A stretch of DNA of 32,927 nucleotides from a virus. The position numbers and the translations under genes are program-made. The stretch spans positions 1-32,927 of IMG/VR virus record IMGVR_UViG_3300045988_149366, one strand, 5' to 3'. The notes beneath the pieces were generated by a model. It searched no databases, was not told where the DNA came from, and saw only the letters and a list, made by a program, of their open reading frames with translations. This document shows positions 1 through 16,711 of the stretch, piece after piece (the first letter of the stretch is position 1; each line of letters starts with the position of its first letter).

Positions 1-119
1 CTTTCGAGTCCGTTTGGCCCGTGAGCGTCGTCGTCTTTTTCGTCCTCGGCTTGTTGACGGGCGTTCTGATCTCGATGCTGGCTGCTGTTTTCGCTCAGGC
101 GCGAACGCGTGAAAAAAAC
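1..119. repeat. terminal direct repeat, left copy (circular-closure overlap)
   Basis: nt 1-119 are identical base-for-base to nt 32809-32927 (read directly from the sequence). Confidence 0.95.
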
Positions 120-413
120 TTGACGCGCGTTGATCTTCAGACATTCGACTGGGATCAACTACCAGCCACGGAAAACCAAAACGCTTCTGCGCAAACTCGA
201 ATGGATTCTTCCTCCATTCACGTTTCTGCAAAACCATCCACCACGGCGGGCGCGGAAATGGACACATTTCAACTACCGGCGACAAGAATTTCCTTCGTCT
301 TCGATAACGCTCCAATCTCAGTGGAGGAAAAACATAAGGAACATTCTCCAAATGAAAATGAACACCCTGAGCTAAATGGCCTCGACTACGGACAGGAGGA
401 TCTTTCCAAATGA
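1..413 (+). CDS. small membrane-anchored protein; junction-spanning gene whose true start is GTG 32784 (5' end cut by linearisation)
   Basis: Track ORF 21..413. The frame stays open to the window edge and, through the terminal repeat, back to GTG 32784. Clean hydrophobic helix VVVFFVLGLLTGVLISMLAAVF followed by a polar/acidic tail with an internal TF..QLPAT repeat. Confidence 0.6.
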   Translation, partial: FESVWPVSVVVFFVLGLLTGVLISMLAAVFAQARTREKNLTRVDLQTFDWDQLPATENQNASAQTRMDSSSIHVSAKPSTTAGAEMDTFQLPATRISFVFDNAPISVEEKHKEHSPNENEHPELNGLDYGQEDLSK

Positions 414-834
414 GCAGGCCAGATAAAGGAAACTCAATCTCATCTGGATTGTCAAGCCACACAGCTAACCCGATTTCATCACCAGGACGAACAGCAGGCA
501 GAACTGCCGGCGTAATCCCTGTAGAAGAATGCGAATATGGCCTAAAAAACAGTGCCTTGCATTTGAAAAATGGGAAATATTCCAGCATATACACTGCGCC
601 GTCCCCTGAATTCACAAAGTGTATGACTAGATCTGGATTCGGGGTGTTGGGAGCGTTAAAAAGACCACGCAGTTTTTCTGGGTTAATTCGGATCGTTCCA
701 TCTAGTACTAAGTGTGCTTTCGGGCGGCGCATCCATGTCCAAAAGAATGAAAATACTCCACCTGATAGGGAGATAAGTGCCGCTATTAGTGAAGCGATTG
801 CCGCAATCCATGCCGCGTCGTTGAGCCAGCTCAT
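1..834 (-). CDS. reverse-strand membrane-anchored protein B (TM helix + beta-rich domain); absent from the ORF track because it runs off the window edge; stop is TGA at complement 32803..32805 across the junction
   Basis: Hand translation: the complement frame has no TTA/CTA/TCA in phase from 915 down to 1. ATG at 834 (GGAG just upstream); alternative in-frame ATGs at 858 and 864. N-terminus MSWLNDAAWIAAIASLIAALISLSGGVFSFFWTWM (TM), then DLVIHFVNSGDGAVYMLEYF...VRPGDEIGLAVWL. The distal ~140 codons are Arg-rich and antisense to gene 32784..413, so the real C-terminus is uncertain. Confidence 0.5.
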   Translation of the reverse strand, partial: MSWLNDAAWIAAIASLIAALISLSGGVFSFFWTWMRRPKAHLVLDGTIRINPEKLRGLFNAPNTPNPDLVIHFVNSGDGAVYMLEYFPFFKCKALFFRPYSHSSTGITPAVLPAVRPGDEIGLAVWLDNPDEIEFPLSGLLIWKDPPVRSRGHLAQGVHFHLENVPYVFPPLRLERYRRRRKFLSPVVEMCPFPRPPWWMVLQKREWRKNPFEFAQKRFGFPWLVVDPSRMSEDQRASSFFHAFAPERKQQPASRSERPSTSRGRKRRRRSRAKRTRK

Positions 835-915
835 GGTCTCCACAGTACATGGAGACATGCGCATTTCGGATGGGAGCGTGTGATGAATACGCCAAACACC
901 GATCCGACTGTCCAG

Positions 916-1503
916 CTAGCTGAAGCGATGATCCAGCACGCTCTGACGCTCCACCCCGCTGCTAGACGACGCGTGAATGAACACGCGGCACGTAATACTG
1001 CTCGGAACGCTCATGCGTCGAACGCCATCAATACTCACGCGACTCGGCACGGGCTGTGCGAACAGTTCAAGCAGATGCTCATGGAGCAAATCGGGCGTGA
1101 ACGAATGCTCACCAAATGCGGGTACGTCTACCCCATCGAGCACTCGTACGGGAGCGTCTTCACACAAGACAGTAATGGACACACTGTATGCGTCGAAGGA
1201 ACTCTCGTTCATCACGGTGATGAGCTCACCTCTGTTTTCACTTTCAAGCCGCCATACGAAGTCAGCTCTGTCTTGGCTCGCCTTGAGTGCTCTCCTCGCG
1301 ACGTGGTTCGCCTCGCTACTTATCTGGTTTGCCTGTGCTGCCAGGCGGTTAGCCTCGGGCACTGCGAGGCCTGCTTCCTGGGCGATGCGGTTAGCTTCCT
1401 GAGCCAGTCTTTGGCCGCGTTTCGTGTCAGTGCGGGCGAGGACGGCGACGATGAGGCTTCCCAGCGCGATCGCCACGCTGACCACTGCGATAACGGTGCT
1501 CAC
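916..1503 (-). CDS. reverse-strand membrane-anchored coiled-coil protein A (TM helix + EAN-repeat helix + beta-rich C-terminal domain)
   Basis: Track ORF. N-terminal helix VIAVVSVAIALGSLIVAVLA, repeats EANRIAQEA/EANRLAAQANQISSEANHVA, then ELITVMNESSFDAYSVSITV...VPAFGEHSF. Composition is far more protein-like than the codon-aligned + ORF 880..1539, which is about 5% Cys and 8% His. GTG start with a TAGCGT -10-like hexamer 6 nt upstream (candidate leaderless start). Confidence 0.55.
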   Translation of the reverse strand: MSTVIAVVSVAIALGSLIVAVLARTDTKRGQRLAQEANRIAQEAGLAVPEANRLAAQANQISSEANHVARRALKASQDRADFVWRLESENRGELITVMNESSFDAYSVSITVLCEDAPVRVLDGVDVPAFGEHSFTPDLLHEHLLELFAQPVPSRVSIDGVRRMSVPSSITCRVFIHASSSSGVERQSVLDHRFS

Positions 1504-1509
1504 ACGGTA

Positions 1510-1515
1510 ACGCTA
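1510..1515 (-). promoter_or_regulatory. candidate -10 hexamer (TAGCGT) for a leaderless transcript of reverse-strand gene A
   Basis: The complement of ACGCTA at 1510-1515 reads TAGCGT (TANNNT), ending 6 nt before GTG 1503. There is no SD. This geometry is typical of actinobacterial leaderless mRNAs. Confidence 0.25.
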
Positions 1516-1535
1516 CCCGAAGGCGGTGAAGCGCT

Positions 1536-1727
1536 GTGACTGCCAGGAGGAAACTCGAACCCTTGTACACGCCAAGCGAGGTGGCGGAGCGTCACGGCGT
1601 GACCGCCCGCACCGTGCGCGAGTGGGTAGCACTGGGAAAACTCCCGGGCTCGTACCGCCGCTACAGGCGTATCTGCATCCCTAAGTCGGCGCTGGACGCT
1701 TTCGAGCGTAAAGCACCACGGTACTAG
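1536..1727 (+). CDS. excisionase-family / MerR-like helix-turn-helix DNA-binding protein
   Basis: LYTPSEVAERHGVTARTVREWVALGKLPG...IPKSALDAF matches the HTH_17 / excisionase pattern; GTG start. Confidence 0.65.
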   Translation: MTARRKLEPLYTPSEVAERHGVTARTVREWVALGKLPGSYRRYRRICIPKSALDAFERKAPRY

Positions 1728-1736
1728 AGGAGAACA

Positions 1737-1922
1737 GTGATGAAAACACTAACGCTCCGCACGGCAGCGGTACTTCACGCACTCCTCGCACTCATCATCC
1801 TCATAGCGCTCGCACGCATGGACAACACGCAGGTTCAGGCGGCAGCGGCCTACATGTGGGCATTCCTCGCCCTGCTGCTCGCAGTCGGCACATTCACCAA
1901 CGACAAGGAGGACGACCAGTGA
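1737..1922 (+). CDS. small two-helix membrane protein
   Basis: Track ORF with two hydrophobic segments (AAVLHALLALIILIALA; AAYMWAFLALLLAVGTF). GAGGAGAA upstream; the start may be ATG 1740. Confidence 0.6.
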   Translation: MMKTLTLRTAAVLHALLALIILIALARMDNTQVQAAAAYMWAFLALLLAVGTFTNDKEDDQ

Positions 1923-2197
1923 GCACCTATGAATCTGTTGATCTCGACGACTGCACGATCGACCTATTTGACAGGGATATCCAAATAAGTAGCCGCATGG
2001 GTTTATTTGACACTGACAGCGTTATTTTCGTGCCTACGGTGAGCACGGGAATCAGGTTGGCAGGTCTCGCCGCGCGCGCAGCAATCCAGCAATCCGATCT
2101 CCCATTACCCGATGACGCTAGCCTTACAACCATTTTCGCGAGGGTTATCTGCATCCTCAACGAAGACCTGTCGATTGAGGAGGAGCGGGAATGGTGA
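1919..2197 (+). CDS. hypothetical protein
   Basis: In frame with track ORF 1856..2197. GTG 1919 overlaps the upstream TGA (GTGA) and follows AAGGAGG by 7 nt. Confidence 0.6.
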   Translation: MSTYESVDLDDCTIDLFDRDIQISSRMGLFDTDSVIFVPTVSTGIRLAGLAARAAIQQSDLPLPDDASLTTIFARVICILNEDLSIEEEREW

Positions 2198-3126
2198 ACG
2201 CTGCTCGACTCCTCGGAACTTTCACTGTTGGCAGCAGCCAGTGGCACGCGGCACGACGCTTGGGTCTTGGAGGAAGCGAGGTTGCGAGCGCCGTTGGCCT
2301 TTCACCGTGGAAATCACGGTGGACGCTATGGCAGGAAAAAGCAGGAAACCTCCAACCATCACAAGGCGAGACATTCAAGCTCTGGCTGGGCTCACACATG
2401 GAACAGGTAGTTGTCGACGCGTGGAAGCAGACCAGCCCAGGCAGGTTCTGCAGGCGGACAGGAATGTGGGTGAACCGAGAACGCTCCTTCCAGTTCGCTG
2501 AACCTGACCGTCTGATCGTCGCCTCTCAGCATGGCCGCGCGCCAGTAGGGATCCTCGAAGCGAAAACAGCTGACATTGCGAACGCTTTCGAATGGGGCAA
2601 GTCAGGAGGCTCCCAGGACGATATCCCGCCGTACTACTACACGCAGGTGCTGTGGTACATGAGCTGTCTCGACATTGATATGGCTCAGCTAGCGGTCATT
2701 GTGTCGGCACGCGAGTACCGCGAATACAGTGTTGCGCGCAGCCGCCAGGACGAAGACTGGCTAGTCGGGGAAGCTGAGAAGTTCATGGCTTCTATCGAAG
2801 CAGGCACACCGCCTCTTGTGGACTCGTCCCAGTCCACGTATGAGGCGATCCGCACGCTGCACCCGGACATTAGACCAAGCGAAGACGTCACTATCAGCGC
2901 TGACCTTGCCAACAAGTGGGCGCAAGCTCGCGGCGAGCTGGAAGCTGCGAAGAAAGCTGATGCCCAGTACCGCAATGAGGTTGCTGACCTATTGGGCATG
3001 GGGCAAACCGCGTGGGTATCGACCGTTGACGGCAAAAACCTCAAGGTCGCATCGCGCCGGTCAGCGCGCGAAGGCGCAGCACCAAGCCTGTATCCGGTAC
3101 GCAACCTTTCACACACGATTTTCTAA
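2191..3126 (+). CDS. YqaJ-like viral recombinase exonuclease (lambda Exo / RecE-type PD-(D/E)XK)
   Basis: N-terminal motif WHAARRLGLGGSEVASAVGLSPWKSRWTLWQEK and EAKT...YYYTQVLWYM are typical of the YqaJ family. It lies directly upstream of recT. Confidence 0.8.
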   Translation: MVNAARLLGTFTVGSSQWHAARRLGLGGSEVASAVGLSPWKSRWTLWQEKAGNLQPSQGETFKLWLGSHMEQVVVDAWKQTSPGRFCRRTGMWVNRERSFQFAEPDRLIVASQHGRAPVGILEAKTADIANAFEWGKSGGSQDDIPPYYYTQVLWYMSCLDIDMAQLAVIVSAREYREYSVARSRQDEDWLVGEAEKFMASIEAGTPPLVDSSQSTYEAIRTLHPDIRPSEDVTISADLANKWAQARGELEAAKKADAQYRNEVADLLGMGQTAWVSTVDGKNLKVASRRSAREGAAPSLYPVRNLSHTIF

Positions 3127-3136
3127 GGACACCATC

Positions 3137-3907
3137 ATGAGTTTGCAGCAACAAGCAGAACAAGCAGTCGAAAAGCGCGAGGAGAAACAAACCGAGGTCG
3201 TGCATTTCATTAACAAGATGCAAGACGAAATCAAGCGCGCCCTACCAAAGCACCTTGACGCGGGTCGCATGGCGCGAGTGATCGCGACTGAAGTGCGCAA
3301 GATACCGGCTCTCGCACTGTGCAATCAGACCAGTTTCGCTGGAGCAATGCTCACAGCGGCCACTCTAGGGCTGGAACCGGGCGTCTCGAACGAATGCTGG
3401 CTTGTCCCTTACAAGGGGGAAGTCGCCCTCATCATCGGCTACCAGGGAATGGCGAAGCTCTTCTACCAGCACCCGCTGGCACGCAGTATTGATGCGCAAG
3501 CAGTGTACGCGGACGACTACTTCGAATACGAGTACGGCACGAACCCACACATCACGCACAAGCCATCATCTAACCCGACCGGTGAGCCAATATGTTTCTA
3601 TGCTGTCGCCACACTGGCTACAGGGGCAACCCACTTTTGCGTGCTGACAAGCCAACAGGTACGTGACCTGCGGCGCGGCCTTGACGGCACCTCAGGCGGA
3701 GTTCCTGACCCTCAACATTGGATGGAAAAGAAAACCTGTATTCGCCAGCTCTTCAAGCTACTGCCTAAGAGCTCAATTCTTGTCACGGCACTCGATAAAG
3801 ATGAGCGTTTGGGTAGCGAGCTTGCCCGCGACTTCCAGGTGAACATACAAGATTCAGACGCCGGTCCCAGCCAGCGCATGATCGAAAGCCGGGACCGCAA
3901 TGAGTAG
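3137..3907 (+). CDS. recT: RecT-family single-strand annealing protein
   Basis: ATG 3137 after AAGGA, in frame with track ORF 2816..3907. LPKHLDAGRMARVIATEVRK...GLEPG...CWLVPYKGEVALIIGYQGMAKL is a classic RecT core. Confidence 0.85.
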   Translation: MSLQQQAEQAVEKREEKQTEVVHFINKMQDEIKRALPKHLDAGRMARVIATEVRKIPALALCNQTSFAGAMLTAATLGLEPGVSNECWLVPYKGEVALIIGYQGMAKLFYQHPLARSIDAQAVYADDYFEYEYGTNPHITHKPSSNPTGEPICFYAVATLATGATHFCVLTSQQVRDLRRGLDGTSGGVPDPQHWMEKKTCIRQLFKLLPKSSILVTALDKDERLGSELARDFQVNIQDSDAGPSQRMIESRDRNE

Positions 3908-4325
3908 GAACCGCGATTCAGCCAAGCGTGCCGGGGCACGCTTCGAGCAGCTTGTCGCCACCTACCTCAACCAACACGTGGATGACCGCATTGAGCGGCG
4001 CAAAACCAACGGCGCGAAAGACAGAGGCGACATTGCCGGGCTGCGCGTGTGGGCAGGTGAGCGCGTTGTGGTCGAATGCAAAGACCGCGCCACCCCGTCA
4101 GTCGGCACGTGGCTCAACGAGGCAGAAACAGAGCGCGGCAACGATGACGCCCTGGCGGGTGTCGTGGCGTACAAGCGTCGCGGGAACGCCAACCCGGGCG
4201 ACCAGTTAATCGTCATGACGCTCCGCGATTTCGCTGCCATCCTGACCGGCGAGCGGCCAGACGATGACACCCCCACAAGGTTGAAGCAAGCAGATCAACC
4301 ACAAACAGGTGAAAGGAGGAAATAA
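3900..4325 (+). CDS. PD-(D/E)XK nuclease, putative Holliday-junction resolvase (Hjc/RecU-like)
   Basis: GARFEQLVATYL...DRGDIAG...VVVECKD gives a D...E-x-K motif. The position after exo/recT is typical of actinophage resolvases. Confidence 0.55.
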   Translation: MSRNRDSAKRAGARFEQLVATYLNQHVDDRIERRKTNGAKDRGDIAGLRVWAGERVVVECKDRATPSVGTWLNEAETERGNDDALAGVVAYKRRGNANPGDQLIVMTLRDFAAILTGERPDDDTPTRLKQADQPQTGERRK

Positions 4326-4327
4326 CA

Positions 4328-5281
4328 ATGGCGCAGAAAACAGACACCCCGTGGGTGCGTATCGCCCAATCAATGCCGAACCACCCAAAGATCATGCCAC
4401 TCAGCGATAAAGCGTTCAGAACGCTAGTGGAGATGATCTGCTATTCCGCTCAATACGAACTGGACGGCAAACTGCCAGCCGCCCTCGCAGAGCGACTGTG
4501 GAACATGGACGCGCTCGAAGAACTGATGACCAACAGCAGCACAGCACCATCACTTGCCAAGCGGGACTCCATGTATGTGATTCACGGCTACGAGGACATG
4601 CAAGAAACCAGTAACGAGATAGCTGCTAAGCGCGAGATTCTGCGGGAAAACGGGCGCAAGGGTGGACGCCCAACAGGCAAACCAAAACCAAACGATAACC
4701 AAGCTGGTTTTGACAGCGAAAACCAAACGCTAACCAACTTGGTTTCTGAAACAGAACCAGAAGATAACCAACTTGGTTTCGCCACGCAAAACCAAACGGA
4801 AACCAAGCTGGTTTCGCCACGCAAAACCAAAACAAAAGCAGAAGAAGAAAAAGAAGAAGAAGTAGAAGAAGAAAAAGAAATACACTCCCCCCTAACCCCC
4901 CTCAAGGGGGGAACATGTGCGACCGCCCAAGACTTCACCGACTTCTACAAAGCGTACCCCCGGCACGTCGGACGCAAAGACGCAGAGCGCGCATTCCATA
5001 GAGCCGCAAAGACAGTCAGCCCGCAAACGATCATCGACGCGGCACGCCGCCTAGCAGCAGACCCGAACCTTCCCGAAAAACAGTTCATTCCCCACCCGGC
5101 TACGTGGCTCAACCAAGGCCGGTGGGATGACGAGCCGCTACCGGAACGTCACGGAGGGCGCGGCACGTACAGTCAGCGCACTGAGGACGCTGAGCGCGCC
5201 GAGTGGGAACGGCTCCAAGCCCTAGAAGCCCAGCAGGCACAGGACAGCGGACTGTGGCTCACGGACGGGAGGACAGCATGA
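4328..5281 (+). CDS. replication initiator / replisome organiser (lambda O-like, with conserved C-terminal FxxFYxAYPR...PATWLNQGRWDDE domain)
   Basis: The N-terminal wHTH-like region and the C-terminal DFTDFYKAYPRHVGRKDAERAF...FIPHPATWLNQGRWDDE are typical of phage replication proteins. A repeat-rich linker holds candidate iterons. Confidence 0.7.
   Translation: MAQKTDTPWVRIAQSMPNHPKIMPLSDKAFRTLVEMICYSAQYELDGKLPAALAERLWNMDALEELMTNSSTAPSLAKRDSMYVIHGYEDMQETSNEIAAKREILRENGRKGGRPTGKPKPNDNQAGFDSENQTLTNLVSETEPEDNQLGFATQNQTETKLVSPRKTKTKAEEEKEEEVEEEKEIHSPLTPLKGGTCATAQDFTDFYKAYPRHVGRKDAERAFHRAAKTVSPQTIIDAARRLAADPNLPEKQFIPHPATWLNQGRWDDEPLPERHGGRGTYSQRTEDAERAEWERLQALEAQQAQDSGLWLTDGRTA
4697..4911. repeat. 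candidate origin of replication inside the initiator gene: four AACCAAnnTGGTT palindromes, a 22-nt direct repeat, a purine/A-rich tract and a C6/G6 hairpin
   Basis: AACCAAGCTGGTT at 4697 and 4801; AACCAACTTGGTT at 4732 and 4776. GGTTTCGCCACGCAAAACCAAA twice (4785, 4810). GAA/AAG-rich run about 4835-4880. CCCCCC-TCAA-GGGGGG at 4896-4911. Confidence 0.5.
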
Positions 5282-6063
5282 TCACCCCAACCGAGGCGTT
5301 CAAAGTCCTCAAAGTCGCCAAAGCGCTGAGGCTCATCCGAGAGATCGGCACCGGGGACGCAGAAGCATGGGCACACGCGGCTGCCAGGCTTATCCCTCAC
5401 GCCACGCTAGACAGCTTGGTTGACGCGGTCGAGCGCCTGGCAACCAGCCCACGCAAGCGCGGCGGGGACATCACGCTAGGCGACTTAGTGGAAGCAGCCC
5501 AATTCACCGACGCAGAACGATCCCAGCGCATCAACGAACACATCGCCACGCACGGAAGATTCACCGGCGACGGAATCACCGACCCCGCCAAGTGGCGCGT
5601 CGCGCTAGTCGCGTGGACCGACGCTATCGGCAGTGGTGCGAGCGGTGAGGAAGCGGAACAGGCGGCGTACAGGAGCGTGGGAATGGCTGTGCCGAGGCGT
5701 GACCGTCTTGTGCAAGACCCCGGCAAGATACGCAACCTCATTGAGAGCGCTAAACGAAACATCGCCGTTAACAGGGCTAGCACGCCGCCTGACAGGCAAA
5801 CAGGCAGCGACAGTACAAAAACCCGTAAGGGACAGGGCGTGAAACACGCTCAGAAAGGACGACAAGCATCATGCGACACATACTCAAAATCGAAGAAAAA
5901 TGGTTCGAGCGGATCCACGCAGGACAAAAAACCAGCGAACTCCGATTCAACGACCGCGACTACCAGACCGATGACACCATCATCTTCCAACCGGTCAACA
6001 GTGACGGCAACGTGCTCATCAAGCCCTACGACCTGCCGACCTACGAGATCACGCACGTACTGA
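5278..6063 (+). CDS. hypothetical protein (3' end uncertain; formal ORF overlaps the next gene by 193 nt)
   Basis: ATG 5278 overlaps the upstream TGA (ATGA), in frame with track ORF 5203..6063. The first ~195 aa look protein-like; the last ~65 aa are Ser/Thr-rich and overlap 5871..6131. Confidence 0.5.
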   Translation: MITPTEAFKVLKVAKALRLIREIGTGDAEAWAHAAARLIPHATLDSLVDAVERLATSPRKRGGDITLGDLVEAAQFTDAERSQRINEHIATHGRFTGDGITDPAKWRVALVAWTDAIGSGASGEEAEQAAYRSVGMAVPRRDRLVQDPGKIRNLIESAKRNIAVNRASTPPDRQTGSDSTKTRKGQGVKHAQKGRQASCDTYSKSKKNGSSGSTQDKKPANSDSTTATTRPMTPSSSNRSTVTATCSSSPTTCRPTRSRTY

Positions 6064-6131
6064 ACGCCAGCCAGTTCCCCGAGGCCCTACAGCCCGGCTA
6101 CTGCGTGCTCAGCATCGCACCACTGAAATAA
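5871..6131 (+). CDS. ASCH-fold / DUF3850-like protein
   Basis: MRHILKIEEKWFERIHAGQKTSELRFNDRDYQTDDTIIF matches the DUF3850 pattern (H.LKI...F..I..G.KT.E.R.NDRDY); AAAGGA precedes the ATG. Confidence 0.7.
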   Translation: MRHILKIEEKWFERIHAGQKTSELRFNDRDYQTDDTIIFQPVNSDGNVLIKPYDLPTYEITHVLNASQFPEALQPGYCVLSIAPLK

Positions 6132-6149
6132 ACAAGAAAGGACAGCCAA

Positions 6150-6665
6150 ATGACTGAGCTCGTTTTCAGTGAGGCCACGCGCGTCCCGCTCTCCACATGG
6201 GACAGCCTCGACATTCCACAAGACCGGCAAGGCAACTACTGGGTGTGGGACCAGCACGGCGCGAAATACAAGGTCACCAGCACCCCAAACATCATGAGAT
6301 TCACAGAACTCCACGACGGGCAAGACCCGCTGGTTTTCTCACTTGGGGCGCTCATTGATGATGGCACCGTTCTCTACACGAAGCCGCCCGCGCGCAAGCA
6401 AACCCGCGTAGGTGACACGCTCAAAACCATTGAGGACTTCCAGACAGCGCCCATCGGCACAGTCATCATCAACCCCCAAGGCCACGTGTGGCAAAAGCAC
6501 TACTACGGGTGGGACACCTGCACTCAGCATTTCGCCGGAATACACGGAGACGAAGACTTCACCAACCCCGACCAAATCGACAAATACAAATACCCCGGCG
6601 TCCCACCGTGGACAGTCATCCACGCAGGAAAAACCGAAAACTACGAACAGGAGAAAACCGAATGA
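6150..6665 (+). CDS. hypothetical protein
   Basis: Track ORF with AAAGGA RBS and a tight fit in the operon. Confidence 0.6.
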   Translation: MTELVFSEATRVPLSTWDSLDIPQDRQGNYWVWDQHGAKYKVTSTPNIMRFTELHDGQDPLVFSLGALIDDGTVLYTKPPARKQTRVGDTLKTIEDFQTAPIGTVIINPQGHVWQKHYYGWDTCTQHFAGIHGDEDFTNPDQIDKYKYPGVPPWTVIHAGKTENYEQEKTE

Positions 6666-6883
6666 TCGGAGACAACGAGAAGAAACACTTAGATGCCAGC
6701 AGCAACTCATACAAGCATCTAGTCGAAGCGCGGAAAATACTCGCACTCAACATCCCACGCGACGACGCGGATCTGCAAACGATATATAAGAACGCGATTG
6801 CCTACATCTGGGCAGCAGAAAACGAAACAGGAAAAATAATCAACCTCATCGGGCGTCGGCAGGCAGAGGAGGCCGAAAAGTGA
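6662..6883 (+). CDS. hypothetical protein
   Basis: ATG 6662 overlaps the upstream TGA (ATGA), in frame with track ORF 6488..6883. Confidence 0.55.
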   Translation: MIGDNEKKHLDASSNSYKHLVEARKILALNIPRDDADLQTIYKNAIAYIWAAENETGKIINLIGRRQAEEAEK

Positions 6884-7173
6884 ACTACCAGATCGACCTC
6901 GTGCTACAGAAAATGGCGACCGTCGAAGCAGCCGTCAAAAACCTACGCGAAACACTCGACGAATACACGCTCATGCCCATACCCGCCCTTGAGTGGCCGG
7001 ACGATCCCACTAAGACCTACTTGGTGGAAGCCACGCAGTACGGCCTCCCCGTGCGCGACATCATGCGATGGGACGAAGAAAAAGAACGCCTATGTTCAAC
7101 AATCACGCGCACCGAACTCGACCCGCACTCAGAACACGACTTCCTCTACATGTACGAGGAGGAACCAGAATGA
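6880..7173 (+). CDS. hypothetical protein
   Basis: Track ORF; the GTG start overlaps the upstream TGA. Confidence 0.55.
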   Translation: MNYQIDLVLQKMATVEAAVKNLRETLDEYTLMPIPALEWPDDPTKTYLVEATQYGLPVRDIMRWDEEKERLCSTITRTELDPHSEHDFLYMYEEEPE

Positions 7174-7529
7174 AAAAACTCGACCCCGACCAATGGCCGC
7201 TAGACAACCAACTCGTCTACTACGTGAAAGGCAGCAGCGACGGCTACCCGGTAGAAGGATTCGCCACTTACGACTGTAGCGGCGAACTCTACGTGACAGG
7301 CGGCAGCATCCTACGCGACTACCGCCCCGAAACAGACGCCCTCTATGAGTGGCACCCATGCGCAGTAGTCCCAATGCCACTGTGGGACGGAATCGCAGAC
7401 CTAGCGGGCGAACCAAACGCGCAATCCATACGCGACTACATCGAATGGTACAGCGCCTACTCAGAATGGGTAGAACGCGAATCTATCCACCCCACGAAAA
7501 TCATTGAAACAAAGGAGAACAACAAATGA
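7170..7529 (+). CDS. hypothetical protein
   Basis: ATG 7170 overlaps the upstream TGA, in frame with track ORF 7068..7529. Confidence 0.55.
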   Translation: MKKLDPDQWPLDNQLVYYVKGSSDGYPVEGFATYDCSGELYVTGGSILRDYRPETDALYEWHPCAVVPMPLWDGIADLAGEPNAQSIRDYIEWYSAYSEWVERESIHPTKIIETKENNK

Positions 7530-8017
7530 GTGGAGAACCAGTCATCACCATCACCGGGAACCTCACCAAAGACCCCGAACTACGATTCACGTCATCAGGA
7601 GTAGCAGTCGCAGACTTCTCAATAGCAGTCACACCACGCACCTACAACAAACAAACCCAACAATGGGAGGACGGTGACCCACAATTCTACAGGTGCAGCC
7701 TATGGCGCGACGCGGCAGAAAACGCGGCAGAAACACTACGCAAAGGCATGAGAGTAATCGCCACAGGCCGCATCTCACTACGCTCATACGAAAACCGCGA
7801 CGGACAACAACGCAGCGAACTCGCCCTACAGGTTGACGAGGTTGGCCCCTCACTACGCTACGCGCGCGCACAAGTCACGAAAGCCCCAACCGGCAGTGCG
7901 CAACCAGCACAGCAACCGCGAGCGCAAGCCACGCGCAACGCGCCAGCAGGCGGCACCAGCGGCGATCCCTGGGCACAACAGTCACAGCCCACATTCCCGG
8001 ACGAGCCACCATTCTAA
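7526..8017 (+). CDS. ssb: single-stranded DNA-binding protein
   Basis: ITITGNLTKDPELRFTSSGVAVADFSIAV...YRCSLWRDAAENAAETLRKGMRVIATGR is an OB-fold SSB. It has a Gln/Pro-rich tail ending in the acidic tip DEPPF. Confidence 0.9.
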   Translation: MSGEPVITITGNLTKDPELRFTSSGVAVADFSIAVTPRTYNKQTQQWEDGDPQFYRCSLWRDAAENAAETLRKGMRVIATGRISLRSYENRDGQQRSELALQVDEVGPSLRYARAQVTKAPTGSAQPAQQPRAQATRNAPAGGTSGDPWAQQSQPTFPDEPPF

Positions 8018-8164
8018 ACAGCGCCACTAGCACGCCGGGCGGGGGAGCAACAGCAACAAGCCAACTCCCCTGCCCCAAGCGCCGCGCATAGAATCACCAA
8101 ACACCAACAGCAGCCAAACAGCGAACCCACAACACGCCCGAACACCCGCAGGAGGAACCCACGC

Positions 8165-8932
8165 ATGACACACCTCATCCAGCGGCACGCGCCCCAACAA
8201 GTCAGGCGCGCCCAACACCAACTGCACGACCTCCACCACTGGACGCCACTACTCACCATCACCAGCAGTACGGCCACCGGCCTCCACTCGCCACGCTCAG
8301 GCAGGTCAGGAGGTGCGCAGGACAGTCTCCCGTTCGGCTTAGACCAAGCGATAGATGACACCACGCTAGGAGTAGCCGGAGTGCACACCACGATGGGAGC
8401 TGTCACAGAGATGTGGCACTGGGCTGTGAACGTGGCTGGCACACTCAACACACAGGAGCGTCCCAAGCGCGACCTGTCGGTGTTCTACTGGCTCACCGAG
8501 CACGCCCCCGACGCTTACGACCAGCACCCAGACTGGGACAGCCTCAGCAACGACATCGCGACGCTATGGCGCAGGGTCGCAACCCTCACAGGCCACGGCA
8601 CCCACAGGCTCGCAGAATGCCCATGCGGCGGCACCATACGCGCACAAGCCACCCGCAAAGGGATCACCACGGGAGGCGAATGCGACACGTGCGAAACCTA
8701 CTACCCTGACCTCGACACGGTGGCTGAAGCGCACCGCCAACACATGCGCACCGACGCAGTTAGCCCCACGGTGTGGGTCACCGCGCGCCAGGCACGCGTC
8801 ATCTGGCCAACCCTCACCGCCACTAACCTGCGTGTCCTCGCACACCGAGGCAAAATCGCCCGCCAACACAACACGGTCAGCACATACCGGCTCTTGGACA
8901 TCAACAGGCACATGCTACGCAAATGGCACTGA
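8165..8932 (+). CDS. hypothetical protein with a Cys4 zinc-ribbon-like motif and a C-terminal HTH-like segment (possible regulator)
   Basis: AGGAGG 8 nt before the ATG. CPCGG...CDTCE motif. The C-terminal WVTARQARVIWPTLTATNLRVLAHRGKIA resembles an HTH. The function is inferred only. Confidence 0.5.
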   Translation: MTHLIQRHAPQQVRRAQHQLHDLHHWTPLLTITSSTATGLHSPRSGRSGGAQDSLPFGLDQAIDDTTLGVAGVHTTMGAVTEMWHWAVNVAGTLNTQERPKRDLSVFYWLTEHAPDAYDQHPDWDSLSNDIATLWRRVATLTGHGTHRLAECPCGGTIRAQATRKGITTGGECDTCETYYPDLDTVAEAHRQHMRTDAVSPTVWVTARQARVIWPTLTATNLRVLAHRGKIARQHNTVSTYRLLDINRHMLRKWH

Positions 8933-9029
8933 CCCGTGATAATGTAACGCCTAGAGGCGTCAAGCGCGCCCAAAAACCAGCAAAGAAGCCTGGTTCCCCA
9001 TTCACCACCAGCCCAGCAAGGCAACCGTA

Positions 9030-9371
9030 ATGGCCGCCAAACCAAACCCACGGCGAGCCAACAGCACGCGCAGAAACCGACTGAGAGCACGAATCCTCGC
9101 GGCCTACGACACCTGCCACATCTGCGGACAACCTGTCGACAAAACACTCACATGGCCGCACCCCTGGTGCGGTGTCGTCGACGAAATAATCCCCATCAGC
9201 AAAGGCGGGCCACAAACATTTGCTAACACGCGCCTCGCCCACAACTACTGCAACCGCATCAAATCCAACAAGTCATTAGCGTGGGCACAACACAAGCTAC
9301 AACAAGCACGCGCCCCACACCAGCCACCAGCACGACCAACATCACTACCATTCACAACAAGCACATGGTGA
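9030..9371 (+). CDS. HNH endonuclease
   Basis: CHICGQPVD...DEIIPISKGG...NTRLAHNYCNRIK is an HNH motif. Its position just upstream of the terminase genes is typical of HNH-assisted packaging. Confidence 0.8.
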   Translation: MAAKPNPRRANSTRRNRLRARILAAYDTCHICGQPVDKTLTWPHPWCGVVDEIIPISKGGPQTFANTRLAHNYCNRIKSNKSLAWAQHKLQQARAPHQPPARPTSLPFTTSTW

Positions 9372-9515
9372 CCACACCAACGACAACCGCGAGAAAAGGC
9401 ATGCCACGCCCCACCACAGCCACACGAAACCACACAACACCAGGGGGAACACCCCCCACCACAGCAGGGCGGCCACCTCGGGTGCAGGGCTAATATCTCC
9501 CCACAGTGCTCTTGT

Positions 9516-9538
9516 GTAACACCCGCCCCGTAACACCC
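9516..9538. repeat. direct repeat GTAACACCC x2 upstream of the small terminase gene (candidate terminase recognition element)
   Basis: GTAACACCC at 9516-9524 and 9530-9538, 14 bp start to start, in the 192-nt HNH/terS gap. Confidence 0.3.
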
Positions 9539-9563
9539 AGTGGTTGGAGCGTGACAGGAGGAC

Positions 9564-10028
9564 ATGATGAAACGCGTGTGTGCGCATTGTGGCACGCAGC
9601 TTGACCGGAATGCCGGTGTTCGTGCGAAGTATTGTTCTGATGCGTGTAGGCAGGCTGCGTATCGCGCTCGAAAAGCGCAGAACCCTACGGCTCCCGGCAC
9701 TACTGCTGATAATTTTGGCGTGCGTAGAGGGCCGGGTGGGCATGTGACGGTGGATTTGACTAGGGACGTGTCGGCGACGATCACGCGTGAAGAGTTTGAA
9801 CGCATGATGGATGACACGGTTGAGGATACGTTGCGGTTTACGCGTGGGGTGCTGAAGATGGCGTTGCCTGAAGCGCCTGCTAATACTCTTGCCCCGATTT
9901 CTAAGCAGTTGATTGAGATTGCCAAAGAGCTTGAGGCTCGTACTGGCGGCGCTGTTTTTGATGATGCTTCGGGCTTGGGCGAGTCTGAGGAGGTGAGCGA
10001 GGAGGCTTTTGATCTTGGACAGATCTAA
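9564..10028 (+). CDS. putative terminase small subunit (N-terminal zinc-ribbon type)
   Basis: CAHCGTQL...YCSDACRQAAYRARK is an N-terminal motif I recall from actinophage small terminases, followed by an acidic C-terminus. It lies immediately upstream of terL. The start may be ATG 9567. Confidence 0.5.
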   Translation: MMKRVCAHCGTQLDRNAGVRAKYCSDACRQAAYRARKAQNPTAPGTTADNFGVRRGPGGHVTVDLTRDVSATITREEFERMMDDTVEDTLRFTRGVLKMALPEAPANTLAPISKQLIEIAKELEARTGGAVFDDASGLGESEEVSEEAFDLGQI

Positions 10029-11466
10029 ATTGAAGCTTTCCCAGCTCGCTAAGCATTTGGAGATTCCTGAGGGGATTGTAGCGTCTGATTTTCCGAGGAT
10101 TGCTCGGCAGGCTGCTAAGTGTGGGATCTTTTTTGATGCGTGGCAGGCGGGGATTGGGTCGCTGATTCTTGGTAGGCGCTCTGATGGGTCGTATGCGTGC
10201 GCTGTGGGTGGTGCGGGCTTGTCGATTCCGCGTCAGGCCGGTAAGACGTACATGATTGGCATGCTTGTCGTGTTCATGTGCATCATGCGGTCGAGTGTGA
10301 CGGTGTTGTGGACTGCTCACCGCTCGAAGACGTCTGGTGAGACGTTTAAGTCGATGCAGGGCATTGTGAATAGGCCGCAGTTGCGCCGGTTTGTCGCGTC
10401 GATTAGGCGTGCGAATGGTCAGGAAGCTATTGAGTTTGTGAATGGTTCGCGCGTGTTGTTTGGTGCGCGCGAGCAGGGGTTTGGCCGCGGGTTCGCTGAG
10501 GTGGACATTGAGGTGTATGACGAGGCTCAGATTCTGACTGAGCGCGCGTTGGATGACATGCTGCCTGCGACTGCGGTGTCGAAGATTGGCTTGGTGATTT
10601 ACATGGGGACGCCTCCGCGTCCTGGTGTTGATCCGGGTGAGGTTTTTGAGCAGAAGAGGCTTGACGCGGTTAAGCGGCATGATCGGGACACGTTGTGGGT
10701 GGAGTTTGGTGCGCAGCGTGGGTGTGATCCTGATGATCAGGCGAATTGGGAGGCTGCTAATCCGAGTTTTCCGCATCGCACTCCGGTGTCGTCGATTGCG
10801 CGGTTGCGTCGTCAGCTTGCTGCTGATTCGTTTATGCGTGAGGCGTTGGGGATTTGGGATGAGTCGGCGGGGTTGCGCGCGATTTCTGCTGCCCAGTGGG
10901 CGTCGGGTGAGGTTGCCGAGAGGCCGTCTGATGATGGTGTGGCGTGTTTTGCGATTGACATGCCGCCGGATAGGTCTGCTGTGGCTGTTGGCGCGTGCAT
11001 GAAGTATGACGATGGGACTGCGCATATTGAGCTGGCTGAGTATCGGCCTGTTGATACGTGTGGTTTGCGGTGGGCGGTTGATTGGGTTGCTGAGCGGTGG
11101 CCGAAAGCTGGCGCTGTGGTGGTTGATGCGCAGTCGCCTGCTATGGCGCTGCTGCCGGATTTGCAGGATGCGCATGTGAAGGTGACTGTCACTGATGTGA
11201 AGGATATGGGGCGTGCGTGTGGGCGTGTGGTGGACATGTTGAATACGCGGTCGTTGACGCATTTGCCTGACGCGGATCAGCCTCAGATGGGGATTGCTGT
11301 TGAGAATTTGACGAAGCGTGCGATTGGTCAGGCTGGCGCGTTTGGGTGGAATCGTAAGGGGTCGGATGTGGATATCAGCCCGATGGTGGCGTGCACTCTT
11401 GCTCTTCATGGTGCGTTTGTGACGCGGCGGGATCCGAGGCGAGTGCAGAAAGTGGGGATCAGATGA
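10009..11466 (+). CDS. terL: terminase large subunit
   Basis: Walker A-like SIPRQAGKTYM, Walker B-like VDIEVYDEAQ and a C-terminal nuclease-domain region. It sits before the portal gene. No in-frame ATG near the 5' end; candidates are TTG 10009, 10015 (better spaced from GGAGG 10001-10005) or 10030. Confidence 0.85.
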   Translation: MILDRSKLKLSQLAKHLEIPEGIVASDFPRIARQAAKCGIFFDAWQAGIGSLILGRRSDGSYACAVGGAGLSIPRQAGKTYMIGMLVVFMCIMRSSVTVLWTAHRSKTSGETFKSMQGIVNRPQLRRFVASIRRANGQEAIEFVNGSRVLFGAREQGFGRGFAEVDIEVYDEAQILTERALDDMLPATAVSKIGLVIYMGTPPRPGVDPGEVFEQKRLDAVKRHDRDTLWVEFGAQRGCDPDDQANWEAANPSFPHRTPVSSIARLRRQLAADSFMREALGIWDESAGLRAISAAQWASGEVAERPSDDGVACFAIDMPPDRSAVAVGACMKYDDGTAHIELAEYRPVDTCGLRWAVDWVAERWPKAGAVVVDAQSPAMALLPDLQDAHVKVTVTDVKDMGRACGRVVDMLNTRSLTHLPDADQPQMGIAVENLTKRAIGQAGAFGWNRKGSDVDISPMVACTLALHGAFVTRRDPRRVQKVGIR

Positions 11467-13082
11467 GCGTTATTAGTAGTGAATTGTCGACCGGCTACGC
11501 CTCCGTTAACGGCTTGCGTGTCCCTCCGCTTCGTGGTGTACCAGCGTCGCATATGGGTGTGATTCGTCAGCTCGCCAGGGTGTGGAGCGCGAAGTATCCT
11601 CGCAATCTTTTGCGCTCGGAATACTACGCTGCTAAGAACCGGCTGAAAGATTTCGGTATTGGTATTCCGAATCGTATTTCTGCGCAGGCGTCGGCAATGA
11701 TCGGCTGGCCTGAACTTGCCGTGCGCAGTTTGTCTGACTTGTCATCATTTCAGGGGTTCAACACGGGCAGTCGGGACGAGCTGGGTGTTTTGGAGATCTT
11801 TAACCGCAATAGTCTCGACCAGGTGGTGGCTGAGGCTATTGTGTCCGCCTACATTCACTCCTGCTCGTTCCTGACGATCTCGGTGGATGAGAATGGGCAG
11901 CCGGTGATCAGGCCGGCGTCTGCTGAATGGTCTGCTGGCATTTGGGATTATGCGAATCATCGGTTGGCGGCAGCACTGACGATCATGTCGACCACTGAGC
12001 GCGGGGACGTGACGCGGTTTTGCGCGTGGCTGCCCGGCGTGACGTACGACTGCGAGAAAACGAAGACGGGGTGGTCGGTTACTGGGCTGCCGACTGGGCT
12101 GGATGAGCCTGCTGCCGTTGCGATGGTTCACGATAAGCAGTTGCAGCGCCCGTTTGGGCATTCGCGGATTTCCCGCCCTGTCATGGCTGCTACTGATATC
12201 GGCTTCCGCACGGTGATGCGCATGGAGGGAAATGCCGAGTTTTATGCGTCTCCACGCCTGTGGTTCCTTGGGCTTGCGCAGGACGCTTTTGACACGGACA
12301 CGTGGTCTGCTCTCCAGTCGGCGGTTAATTCCGTCAGTAAAGATATTGACGGTGATGTGCCGACTATTGAGCAGGTTGCGCAGGCGTCGATGGCTCCGCA
12401 TGTGGAGATGCTCAAGTCGATGGCAATGCTGTGCGCGGCGTCAATGCGGGTGCCTGTGGACTATATGGGTATCACGTTGGATAATCCGACGTCTGCGGAG
12501 TCTCAGGCTGCGGCTGAGCGCCGGTTGACTCGTATTGCTGACCGGCAGAATGTGGCGTTTGGGCGCGCGCTTGTTCACGCGCTGATGATTGCTGTGCATG
12601 TGCGGGATGGGCGTTCTCCTGGCGAGCAGGCTCTTGAGAAGGTTACGGCGATTTGGGCTCCGACTCGTGAAGAATCGGGCGCGGCTCGTGCTGATTCGTT
12701 TGCGAAGGTTGCTGCTGTTATCCCGGGGTATGCGGATTCTGATGTCGGTTTGGAAAAGTTGGGATTGTCGCAGGAGGAGATACGCAGGTTGCGTATTGAC
12801 CAGCAGCGTGTCAGGGCGCAAGAAACACTCAACCAGATACGTGCCTCGATGGGGCAAGCCGCTCCAGAGGGAGAAGAAAGCAGTCTGACTCGCCCAGCCG
12901 GTTCACAAGATCCTGTCACGTTAAAAGCAAAGTTCGACGCTCTGGGGGTCGCGATCCGTGCAGGAGTCTCCCCAGAATCGGCGGCAACAAGCTTGGGTTT
13001 GGATGGCGTCGAGTTTACAGGGGCGGTTCCGGTGAGTTTGCGTATGCCTGAATCGGAAGCAACGGATTTGGAAGAAAAATAG
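11463..13082 (+). CDS. portal protein
   Basis: ATG 11463 overlaps the terL TGA, in frame with track ORF 11391..13082. About 540 aa, placed between terL and the MuF-like gene. Confidence 0.8.
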   Translation: MSVISSELSTGYASVNGLRVPPLRGVPASHMGVIRQLARVWSAKYPRNLLRSEYYAAKNRLKDFGIGIPNRISAQASAMIGWPELAVRSLSDLSSFQGFNTGSRDELGVLEIFNRNSLDQVVAEAIVSAYIHSCSFLTISVDENGQPVIRPASAEWSAGIWDYANHRLAAALTIMSTTERGDVTRFCAWLPGVTYDCEKTKTGWSVTGLPTGLDEPAAVAMVHDKQLQRPFGHSRISRPVMAATDIGFRTVMRMEGNAEFYASPRLWFLGLAQDAFDTDTWSALQSAVNSVSKDIDGDVPTIEQVAQASMAPHVEMLKSMAMLCAASMRVPVDYMGITLDNPTSAESQAAAERRLTRIADRQNVAFGRALVHALMIAVHVRDGRSPGEQALEKVTAIWAPTREESGAARADSFAKVAAVIPGYADSDVGLEKLGLSQEEIRRLRIDQQRVRAQETLNQIRASMGQAAPEGEESSLTRPAGSQDPVTLKAKFDALGVAIRAGVSPESAATSLGLDGVEFTGAVPVSLRMPESEATDLEEK

Positions 13083-13101
13083 ATAGAGCAGGGAGGTCCA
13101 G

Positions 13102-14367
13102 TTGGAGATTCCCAGTAATTTACAGCAGGAACTCGACCGGCTCTGGGCAAAATACCAGCAGGACCTCGACGCGATCACAGAGTACGCGTGCGGCCTCGTC
13201 GAGGAGGTTGCCGGAAACATTGATGACACGCTAGAAGTGATCAAGGACTACACATCCGTAGCGTCACAGGCAGCTAATGAGTATTACGACGCTGTGCGAA
13301 CCGTGTGGGGAAAAGCGGGCGTTGACCTGCCTGCTTTCAAGCACGACAATCTGATCGACCCGAGGCGGGCTCTGTGGCAGGTTCAAGGCGGCTTCTCAAA
13401 CACCGACTTTAATGGCCTGACCTACAAGCAGGTTATTAGTGGCGAGGCGCACTCGGGGATGACGATTTGGGATCTGCTTCCCGACATTACGAATGTTGAT
13501 ACTGCGCAGCAGCTTGTGGCCGACATGATTCATTCCGTTACACGCCTGACGACTCAGCGGAACATGCGCCTGGATCCGACCAGCCCGAGATGGGCGAGGG
13601 TACCGAGTGGCGAGACGTGCGAGTTCTGCCTGATGCTCGCGTCGAGAGGGTTTGCGTATACCAGTGAGAAAACGGCTGGGCGGGAAATGCAGTATCACTC
13701 GGATTGTGATTGCAGGATCGTTCCATCGTGGGGAAAGCAAACTCTCAAGGGATACGATCCTGACGGCTTGTATGCGCGGTATAAAGCGTGCGCGGACACT
13801 GTTGCGCCTATGACGACGCGTGAACGGTACGACGCGTATAAGAAGACGCTGGCCGCCAGGGGCGGTGAGGAGCTTCGTGACTATGAGTCGTGGAAATGCA
13901 GTATCGAGCTTGCTGAGATGCGTTGGCGTGATCGGCACTGGCTCAACACCGGTGAGCTACCAGAAATCACGTTCGCGTCACCGGGGGTCGAGCAGGAGAT
14001 TCTTAAAGAACGTCCGCATGAGCTACGAACAGCCCAACGATTAAGGCTATGTGGCGTTCAGTGTCACTTCATCGAGGACGAACTGCATATTCGACGTGGA
14101 AATGAAACAGTAACTGTCGGATTATCTGATCTTGCTGGCGGTATCGAGCTAAAAACCTTACTTAAAGCGGGTTCCGCGAACACGATTGAATCCCACTTGC
14201 GTTCACTGAGAACGAAGAGCGATTGCCGGCGTGTCATATTTGATAACCACGAAAATGACCAAATGGACGATGCTTCTCTCATCGACATACTCACGCGGTC
14301 AAAACGATTTGGCAGAGGAAGCGTTTATGTCCTTACCGGGACAGAAAGGCTCATGAAAGTACGATAG
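13102..14367 (+). CDS. MuF / SPP1 gp7-like head morphogenesis protein fused to a C-terminal PD-(D/E)XK-like nuclease (toxin-like) module
   Basis: The core RWARVPSGETCEFCLMLASRGFAYTSE...YHSDCDCRIVP is the MuF-like minor-capsid signature. Residues ~295-421 (PHELRTAQRL...GLSDLAGGIELKTL...RRVIFDN) form an extra module with a D-x5-E-x-K motif in visibly AT-richer DNA. Confidence 0.75.
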   Translation: MEIPSNLQQELDRLWAKYQQDLDAITEYACGLVEEVAGNIDDTLEVIKDYTSVASQAANEYYDAVRTVWGKAGVDLPAFKHDNLIDPRRALWQVQGGFSNTDFNGLTYKQVISGEAHSGMTIWDLLPDITNVDTAQQLVADMIHSVTRLTTQRNMRLDPTSPRWARVPSGETCEFCLMLASRGFAYTSEKTAGREMQYHSDCDCRIVPSWGKQTLKGYDPDGLYARYKACADTVAPMTTRERYDAYKKTLAARGGEELRDYESWKCSIELAEMRWRDRHWLNTGELPEITFASPGVEQEILKERPHELRTAQRLRLCGVQCHFIEDELHIRRGNETVTVGLSDLAGGIELKTLLKAGSANTIESHLRSLRTKSDCRRVIFDNHENDQMDDASLIDILTRSKRFGRGSVYVLTGTERLMKVR

Positions 14368-16708: not shown

Positions 16709-16711
16709 GCG

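Follow-up and report, generated by a model that had tools for sequence, protein, structure and literature searches.

A reverse-strand membrane-protein gene in the early operon of an actinobacterial prophage and the open operon-strand frame that encloses it

Small membrane proteins of temperate actinobacterial phages can guard the lysogen against other phages: a single membrane protein of phage Charlie excludes DNA injection by Che9c, and the pairs gp30/31 of Sbash and gp43/44 of CarolAnn act in defence (PMC6426606, PMC6426596). Long overlapping genes on opposite strands have been described elsewhere, as olg1/olg2 in Pseudomonas aeruginosa (PMC8850804) and as laoB and others in enterohaemorrhagic Escherichia coli (EHEC; PMC5810103, PMC9927249). 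The locus treated here recalls both, and lies in IMG/VR virus record IMGVR_UViG_3300045988_149366, whose whole length of 32,927 nucleotides (nt) was analysed and is called the window below. It consists of two genes, A and B, that run on the reverse strand through a rightward early operon, and of the operon-strand open reading frames (ORFs) that tile the same DNA in the other direction, of which the one enclosing A is referred to as the opORF (Table 1). An accessory transcription unit that sits autonomously between phage genes is known as a moron, and whether long ORFs that overlap in antisense are functional in prokaryotes is a matter of dispute. An original prediction made from the sequence alone had picked out the two minus-strand ORFs in the plus-strand operon, A running from 1503 to 916 and B from 834 to the junction, and both are confirmed, B continuing across the junction of the circular genome. 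We describe below the evidence that A is a genuine gene with a wide family, that the operon-strand frame across it is held open by selection, and that B is one of several partners that occupy a slot beside it.

Gene A and its family

Gene A is genuine and widespread; it encodes, on the reverse strand, a single-pass membrane-anchored protein, laid out as an N-terminal transmembrane (TM) anchor, a helical stalk of ANxxA repeats (helix 2-77) and an immunoglobulin (Ig)-like beta-sandwich (residues 84-194). A word-indexed search with A returned two clusters only, at 94% and 51% identity; a profile search of 1.84 billion representatives yielded 227 family proteins at E ≤ 1e-3, and 78 at ≤ 1e-10, nearly all of them 180-230 amino acids (aa) long and most aligning end to end. 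In the end-to-end alignment of A with 43 homologues (44 sequences), N59 and W84 are invariant, and A34, A51, N52, A55, A65, N66, D78, N99, A105 and G183 are kept in at least 90%. The marks of the family are thus the TM helix, the ANxxA-repeat helix, W84, the N99-x-S-x3-A105 strand and a C-terminal G183-x2-R, and the window protein fits them. AlphaFold2 (AF2), run on this alignment, models A with a mean predicted local distance difference test score (pLDDT) of 91.3, with strands at 84-135 and 170-194 scoring above 90, and the model has the two sheets and about seven strands of an Ig-like fold, a result that concerns A only. Searched with this model, Foldseek finds generic Ig-like sandwiches only (TMEM106B luminal domain, archaeal pilins, ApaG, CopC, FN3), and Pfam, PHROGs, NCBIfam and PADLOC hold no named family for A. 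The original prediction had envisaged all of this: a hydrophobic helix at the start of both A and B (seen in both), EAN-repeat helices in A (present within the ANxxA stalk), an Ig-like sandwich, and no recognizable family. More lysine and arginine residues follow the TM helix than precede it in 42 of the 44 members, an excess that, by the positive-inside rule, predicts an N-out/C-in topology with stalk and sandwich facing the cytoplasm.

The A family is a large, unnamed prophage protein family that spans prophages of Actinomycetaceae, Bifidobacteriaceae, Propionibacteriaceae and Gordonia; its members carry the names Winkia neuii, Actinomyces, Gordonia and Propionibacteriaceae, and clusters of the opORF carry Bifidobacteriaceae names. 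For comparisons at the DNA level, 156 A-family genes from viral and metagenomic contigs were grouped into 21 clusters at 80% protein identity, taken as lineages, and neighbouring genes from the same loci served as controls. A tblastn search with A against the phage collection found one unannotated metagenomic record, and two scans of species-representative genomes found no A-type locus. The A frame has a ratio of non-synonymous to synonymous differences per site (pN/pS) of 0.56-0.67, against 0.33-0.81 in control sense frames; its pS, at 0.60-0.68, is like that of control genes, and it is better conserved than the opORF frame whichever of the two guides the alignment.

That A is reversed within an early operon, as originally proposed, is true wherever its neighbours were called (L001, L002, L020-L024, L042/43), the flanking early genes encoding, for example, Bro-N, HTH_17, ERF/RecT and SSB, and in most of the 21 lineages A is flanked by coupled operon-strand ORFs. 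In Actinobacteria, a TANNNT hexamer 6-7 nt before a start codon that has no Shine-Dalgarno (SD) sequence is the signature of a leaderless mRNA. The window has TAGCGT at this distance from the GTG of A, from which a leaderless mRNA had been guessed, and the guess is strengthened by the family: TANNNT-N6/7-ATG/GTG without an SD, mostly as TAGAAT, stands at the start of A in 16 of 21 lineages, against 1.06% of all ATG and GTG triplets in the same loci. The box fits a candidate sigma-A-type promoter that would give a leaderless A mRNA. Neither strand of the cassette has an intrinsic terminator above chance.

The operon-strand frame across A

A and the plus-strand ORF 880..1539 use identical codon boundaries on opposite strands. 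The start of the opORF overlaps the stop of the plus-strand ORF 410..883, and its TGA (1537-1539) overlaps the GTG of the HTH_17 gene at 1536; such 4-nt stop/start overlaps recur along the plus-strand chain (32787/32784, 413/410, 883/880 and 1539/1536), which tiles the whole cassette unbroken from ORF 32542..32787 to the HTH_17 gene. The arrangement SD-N5-8-(G)TGATG at the opORF start is found again in relatives, with GGGAGG, AAGGAGG or GGAGG as the SD.

In the same register, a stop on the opposite strand can arise from three sense codons only, TTA, CTA and TCA. Control genes replaced an independence model of antisense stops, which was dropped as it underestimates long shadow ORFs (two of the control genes have no antisense stop). 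The same-register antisense frame of A has no stop in 15 of the 21 clusters, one in five and two in one, whereas among 123 control genes of 150-320 codons only two are stop-free and the median is 3.8 stops per 200 codons. The three codons make up 7 of 636 Leu/Ser codons in the A family (1.1%), against 842 of 6413 in neighbouring genes (13.1%; odds ratio 0.07, p = 2e-27). This depletion is 12-fold for the three stop-generating codons and stays within about 2-3-fold for most other codons that end in A, with GTA, ATA, CGA and GAA not depleted; it is also specific to the register, in that A-family genes contain 7 TTA, CTA or TCA trinucleotides in codon register and 244 and 88 at the other two offsets. 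Avoidance of stops persists in a locus of 47% G+C.

The ends of the frame are kept as well. The opORF begins with an ATG or GTG behind an SD (GGGAGG, AAGGAGG), and in about 15 of 21 lineages this start has an overlap of 4 or 1 nt with the stop of the operon gene before it; at the other end, in about 12 of 21 lineages, the opORF stop overlaps the next gene's start. L001 retains AAGGAGG-N7-GTG, though the upstream neighbour there is a reverse-strand gene. With the frame free of stops in most lineages, the codon avoidance register-specific, an SD in place and both ends coupled, sequence comparison shows that the operon-strand frame across A is under selection to stay open, and it seems that both strands of this DNA serve as protein code. 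Public pipelines annotate the opORF as a protein in 6 of 10 exact look-ups (for example WP_427181064.1; the version in the window is P0003). The 90% cluster that holds the L018-type opORF (P0153-P0167; 234-235 aa) also lists 181-187-aa Bifidobacterium longum ImmA/IrrE peptidases; it seems heterogeneous, and its 640 members are not a measure of opORF abundance.

An open antisense frame could instead be a passive by-product of the composition and codon bias of A. A-ending codons are indeed somewhat rarer in the family overall (0.115 against 0.173), and two other genes in the window have fully open antisense frames in the same register. Such an origin is nevertheless highly improbable, given a 12-fold, register-specific depletion confined to the three codons that generate stops, its persistence at 47% G+C, and the SD, ATG and coupled ends found in most lineages; nor is the antisense ORF over the terminase-like gene, one of the two, conserved in its homologue. 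That terminase-like gene (10009-11466, plus strand) has an open same-register antisense ORF of 502 codons at 9901-11409 (minus strand), which is broken by four stops in a 54%-identical homologue in L004 and so looks fortuitous; the other gene, ParB_N-like (31110-32042, plus strand), has one of 353 codons at 30933-31994 (minus strand).

The opposite view, that only the operon-strand ORFs are genes and that A and B are their shadows, draws on the SDs, starts and perfect coupling of the plus-strand ORFs, on mosaic boundaries that match them, on the choice of these ORFs by some gene callers and on a codon score that prefers plus-strand 21..413 to the 3′ half of B. For A it is refuted by a large family of full-length proteins, a model at pLDDT 91, a conserved promoter at its start, and a frame whose conservation always exceeds that of the plus frame, in which the third position varies less than the first. 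For B, five of five variable sites are synonymous, while three of three are non-synonymous in the plus-strand ORF 32784..413, and the view as a whole is scarcely tenable. The original prediction had itself set out what would speak against it, namely relatives that conserve the plus-strand ORFs and break the minus frames. The first half of this is what is seen, in that relatives keep the ORF over A with its SD, start and coupling; the second is not, the minus frame of A being never broken and the better conserved of the two.

How far the amino acids of the opORF are themselves constrained is a separate matter. In three diverged pairs, protein identity is 0.49, 0.39 and 0.34 for A and 0.42, 0.29 and 0.26 for the opORF, and pN/pS of the opORF is 0.72-0.92, with 0.79-1.07 in antisense control frames. 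AF2 gives the opORF product a mean pLDDT of 53.1 from an alignment of 17 database proteins, against 91.3 for A from 44 sequences, and Pfam, PHROGs and the PDB contain no match to it. A conserved C-terminal His of the opORF is the antisense of the ATG or GTG start codon of A (CAT/CAC), and the neighbouring 'DS' appears to be the antisense of the TAGAAT box of A. From these comparisons the opORF product looks to matter little. A codon-usage score could not tell A from the opORF because both share one register, and codon-position counts between the window and L001 were uninformative, with 15 substitutions only.

In the explanation that we favour, with a probability of roughly 0.55, the prophage expresses a membrane cassette, and a 'bridging' ORF overprinted on it keeps the early mRNA under translation. 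A and B would be expressed in the prophage state, under repression, at a time when no transcription of the rightward early operon runs into them; transcription of A would start at its start codon from its own -10 box and give a leaderless mRNA, and the B module, inserted downstream of A, would probably be co-transcribed with it, no terminator having been found. The products of the cassette would act at the membrane to the benefit of the lysogen, their most plausible role being to exclude or fend off other phages, as A and B may do by analogy with known systems. During lytic growth, ribosomes would translate the bridging ORFs through about 1.5 kb of antisense to the cassette, so that the early mRNA would stay covered and coupled, Rho-type polarity or decay would be avoided, and delivery to the downstream HTH_17 and RecET genes would be preserved, the product of the bridging ORF being itself of little importance.

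Several points weigh against this explanation. That the prophage expresses the cassette, that A starts without a leader, that the opORF is translated and that polarity plays a part are all deduced from sequence, and Pfam and PADLOC give no defence-family match for A, B or the partner genes described below. For B, homologues are lacking, codon statistics over the 3′ half are poor, the basic tail is odd and the support comes from five variable sites only; the tiling of B by plus-strand ORFs, which arises in 1.7-4.5% of synonymous recodings of B, is just modestly unlikely by chance and concerns one phage. The substitution pattern over A is also nearer to symmetry than a pure spacer ORF would lead one to expect, with p-distances at codon positions 1, 2 and 3 of 0.53, 0.38 and 0.57 in the A family against about 0.49, 0.44 and 0.62 in controls. 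The opORF is 0.267 identical between distant pairs, against 0.204 when synonymous codons of A are redrawn, and six columns have a near-fixed third and a variable first position (null mean 0.15, maximum 2), yielding an invariant Glu and a near-invariant Leu and Arg in the opORF. These comparisons, whose nulls ignore phylogeny, give moderate support to some amino-acid-level constraint on the opORF.

Taken further, the same signs would make the locus a case of true antisense dual coding, in which the opORF is a functional early-lytic protein, A is a lysogen protein and both are selected over 650 bp. All evidence for maintenance of the opORF fits this, as do the near-symmetry of codon positions 1 and 3 in substitution together with the extra conservation of position 2, a pN/pS of the opORF of 0.72-0.92 where ordinary shadow frames have 0.92-1.07, and its annotation by gene callers in many genomes; moreover, conservation in the opORF exceeds that in A at 17 columns (null mean 7.4, maximum 13), among them the Glu, Leu and Arg just named, which stem from fixed third positions of A. 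We regard dual coding as possible though rather unlikely: the opORF has no confident AF2 fold (pLDDT 53 against 91, albeit from a shallower alignment) and no family or structure match, its most divergent pairs are near neutrality (0.92), part of its conservation is an imprint of the signals of A, and the nulls are blind to phylogeny. Beyond the window, the bridging explanation suggests that phages may tolerate reverse lysogeny genes because the operon strand evolves into a coupled bridging ORF, and that an antisense pair of about 200 codons in one codon register may have been kept by selection across Actinomycetaceae, Bifidobacteriaceae and other Actinomycetota; this generalization is tentative, and we rate it somewhat short of even odds.

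Gene B, the slot beside A and the phage genome

The product of B would have a TM helix at about residues 10-28, a beta-rich segment and a very basic C-terminal half (net +24). Its DNA is AT-rich, as had been noticed from the sequence, with a G+C fraction of 0.45-0.49 over 151-900 against 0.55-0.65 nearby. Database searches for homologues of B matched only a near-identical copy (P0004). Among such copies the variable sites are 88, 100, 283, 535 and 610, all five of them synonymous third positions of B; sites 88, 100 and 283 are second positions of the plus-strand ORF 32784..413, and the two that fall within the plus-strand ORF 410..883 are synonymous in both frames. Two non-synonymous changes fall in the 30 nt from ATG 864 to ATG 834, so ATG 834 is the likelier start; the GGAG ahead of it is not kept in relatives. 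From this pattern of substitution we hold with fair confidence that B is a real gene, and it probably encodes a second membrane protein.

B could nonetheless be fortuitous, with A real and the AT-rich module made of plus-strand genes, 32784..413 for a small membrane protein (by translation, a TM helix and a low-complexity tail) and 410..883. Consistent with this, B lacks homologues and a conserved SD-like GGAG and has its peculiar basic C-terminal half, the module limits (32764..888) match the plus-strand ORF chain no less closely than they match B, and the codon score is +0.13 for plus-strand 21..413 against -0.30 for B over the same stretch; over 410..883 the score runs the other way, at -0.085 for the plus-strand ORF and +0.06 for B. 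A test of ORF-chain tiling did not discriminate, since 9 of 22 controls passed its loose version and 37 of 102 its strict one. Against a fortuitous B stand the five silent sites, three of which would alter the product of 32784..413, the improbability by chance of a 279-codon open frame in DNA of 45-49% G+C, and the unrelated reverse-strand genes that occupy the same slot in L001/L042 and L020. That B is not a gene is thus unlikely, if not negligibly so.

A and B lie in one frame, separated by the TAG at 916-918 and 27 sense codons, as originally noted, which had led to the suggestion that they might be a single gene interrupted by an amber codon, a read-through pair or else paralogs. The shared frame is what speaks for a split gene, whether as a read-through pair or as a pseudogenised fusion. 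The idea can practically be dismissed, however, because the C-terminus of A aligns with the natural C-termini of its family, a recombination breakpoint at 889 falls between A and B, A is unaccompanied by B in L001, in L003-L005 and in each of the 20 other lineages that were examined, and no homologue spans both, B being unrelated to the A family. Paralogy likewise fell away, BLASTP finding nothing between A and B and hhalign giving a probability of 4%. Blastn shows DNA homology with L001 and L003-L005 from 889 up to 1536-1542, which delimits a mosaic module A (889..1536) whose limits match those of the opORF (883-1539). The B module occurs only in the close relatives L026, L034, L036, L042 and L043, where it adjoins A with differing neighbours on its far side. 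As judged from these boundaries, A and B are separate mosaic modules and the B module is mobile.

Downstream of A there is thus a recurring slot that takes accessory genes of the reverse strand. An unrelated soluble 280-aa protein is encoded on the reverse strand beside A in L001 (2778-3620, plus strand of that record) and beside B in L042 (5952-6794), and the operon strand over it is also tiled by overlapping ORFs (172, 118 and 83 aa). In L020, a Winkia neuii prophage (CP118946/CP116394 relatives), a 210-aa protein encoded at 6640-7272 (plus strand) downstream of the A homologue has a TM helix, a helix and a beta-rich domain, with Met57 as its likely start, and one antisense frame over its gene is open for all 210 codons. 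Neither the L001 280-aa nor the L020 210-aa protein has a Pfam or PADLOC family, and A, B and the L020 partner show no mutual sequence or profile similarity. A 'partner' ORF in L117 was rejected, as it looks like the shadow of a forward gene.

The window is a temperate, siphovirus-like actinobacterial phage genome. An exact 119-bp terminal direct repeat (1-119 = 32809-32927) makes the contig circular, with a true length of 32,808 bp; because the assembly closes on itself, the ORFs at its left edge (B and the plus-strand ORF 32784..413) continue at the right. Proteins that share at least 90% identity with A (its 90% cluster) are labelled Actinomyces sp., uncultured Actinobaculum and similar, from which the host of the prophage is placed in the Actinomycetaceae; the cassette lies about 3 kb into its rightward early operon. 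The portal protein is 55% identical to that of Bifidobacterium phage PMBT6, which would suggest Bifidobacterium as host, a reading set aside for the names in the 90% cluster of A; a blastn search of window positions 1-3200 against the phage collection gave no match.

Table 1. Features of the cassette and of the surrounding phage genome, in window coordinates (aa, amino acids; SD, Shine-Dalgarno; TM, transmembrane).
Feature	Position	Strand	Remarks
Gene A	916..1503	-	195 aa; GTG 1503-1501, TAG 918-916
-10-like hexamer TAGCGT (TANNNT)	1510..1515	-	6 nt before the GTG of A, without SD
opORF	883..1539	+	218 aa from ATG 883 (GTG 880 possible); contains all of A, opposite strand
GGGAG SD-like motif	871..875	+	7 nt before opORF ATG 883
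Gene B, main part	1..834	-	279 aa in all; ATG 834, alternative ATG 864
Gene B, end across circular junction	32803..32808	-	Last sense codon and TGA 32805-32803
Operon-strand ORF	410..883	+	157 aa; tiles 5′ half of B; ATGA overlaps at both ends; low-complexity protein
Operon-strand ORF	21..413	+	Tiles 3′ half of B; real start GTG 32784, overlapping the stop of ORF 32542..32787
HTH_17/MerR-like gene	1536..1727	+	Excisionase-type DNA-binding protein; Pfam HTH_17 4e-11; start overlapped by opORF stop
YqaJ	2191-3126	+	
RecT	~3134-3907	+	
Structural genes	further downstream		
Integrase	27285-28457	-	ORF translation, assigned by sequence inspection alone
DUF3800 gene	28767-29417	+	
M78 peptidase	29606-30244	-	
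HTH_3 repressor-like gene	30084-30479	-	
HTH_3 cro-like gene	30583-30804	+	
ParB_N	31110-32042	+	

HTH_17 is the downstream neighbour of the A locus in L001 and L002 also. The gene that follows it in the window, for a small membrane protein (1737-1922, plus strand), is far more diverged from L001 than are A or HTH_17: the window and L001 differ by 55 substitutions in 1027 bp, 29 of which fall within the approximately 180 bp at this gene, a concentration that suggests either a hypervariable patch at this spot or a second joint of recombination close to 1756. In the lysogeny region, an Rfam DUF3800-IX RNA (29400-29469, minus strand; 49.3 bits against a gathering score of 36.8) lies directly downstream of the DUF3800 gene and antisense to its end.

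Comparison with described systems

As a candidate for lysogen-expressed exclusion or defence, the A family is a concrete one in gut and oral Actinomycetota. With Charlie, Sbash and CarolAnn it shares small membrane protein(s) in a temperate actinobacterial phage, an own promoter with transcription against or apart from the lytic genes (for A, as read from its sequence), and a mosaic, rapidly exchanged slot with variable partners. A and B nevertheless have no sequence or profile similarity to these systems (PADLOC and Pfam being negative) and are single-pass, whereas gp31, gp43 and RexB have four TM segments; the features that define the RexAB, Sbash gp30-31 and CarolAnn gp43-44 pairs were looked for, and A and B lack them, a DUF4747-type partner included. 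Their cassette also lies about 3 kb inside the early lytic operon, and those of the known systems next to the repressor. By this analogy, A and B resemble prophage defence genes in lifestyle only. Extracellular blockers of the Ltp type (Sie/Ltp-like) differ in topology, as A is predicted to hold its domain in the cytoplasm, N-out/C-in.

Structural likenesses of A are equally general. The TMEM106B luminal domain (8b7d), archaeal type IV pilins (8fk7), ApaG and CopC likewise place a 7-8-stranded sandwich after an N-terminal helix, and they are among the best Foldseek matches (E = 4e-4 to 1e-2), but TM-scores of just 0.28-0.36 and identities of 8-15% make this a resemblance of generic fold that supports no function. 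The ANxxA / A-x3-A repeats of the stalk recall the alanine-zipper coiled coils of Lpp-type proteins (PF11839), to which five of the 44 family members have weak sub-threshold matches, although these matches fall far under the gathering threshold and a lipobox is absent. Like a moron, the cassette is an accessory, non-essential-looking insert with a promoter-like box, variable content at a fixed slot and, in B, AT-rich DNA; in contrast to morons, it has no terminator that could be found, and the operon strand stays coding across it. It thereby suggests a way in which phages may tolerate backward genes in their operons, with ribosomes kept on the sense-operon mRNA. For annotation it is a warning, as pipelines choose either strand at random here and A-type and opORF-type proteins both stand in public databases.

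The closest parallels to the opORF are the long antisense overlapping genes olg1/olg2 and laoB, with which A and the opORF have in common long ORFs on opposite strands, depletion of stops in the second frame, start signals and signs of purifying selection, which are clear for A and modest for the opORF; both frames are open beyond chance and both have initiation signals. Those cases are evolutionarily young and taxonomically narrow, whereas the A/opORF pair is kept over 21 lineages from several actinobacterial families, down to about 25-30% protein identity, and comparative data alone provide strong evidence for selection on the second frame. Here, moreover, the nested gene, A, is the well-folded and better conserved partner, and the enclosing opORF is an integral, coupled member of an operon. 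If this holds, few antisense overlapping pairs in prokaryotes would be older or better supported than A and the opORF, and the locus would present either two functional proteins encoded by one stretch of DNA or ORFs of a new class, in which selection acts on translation itself and not on the product.

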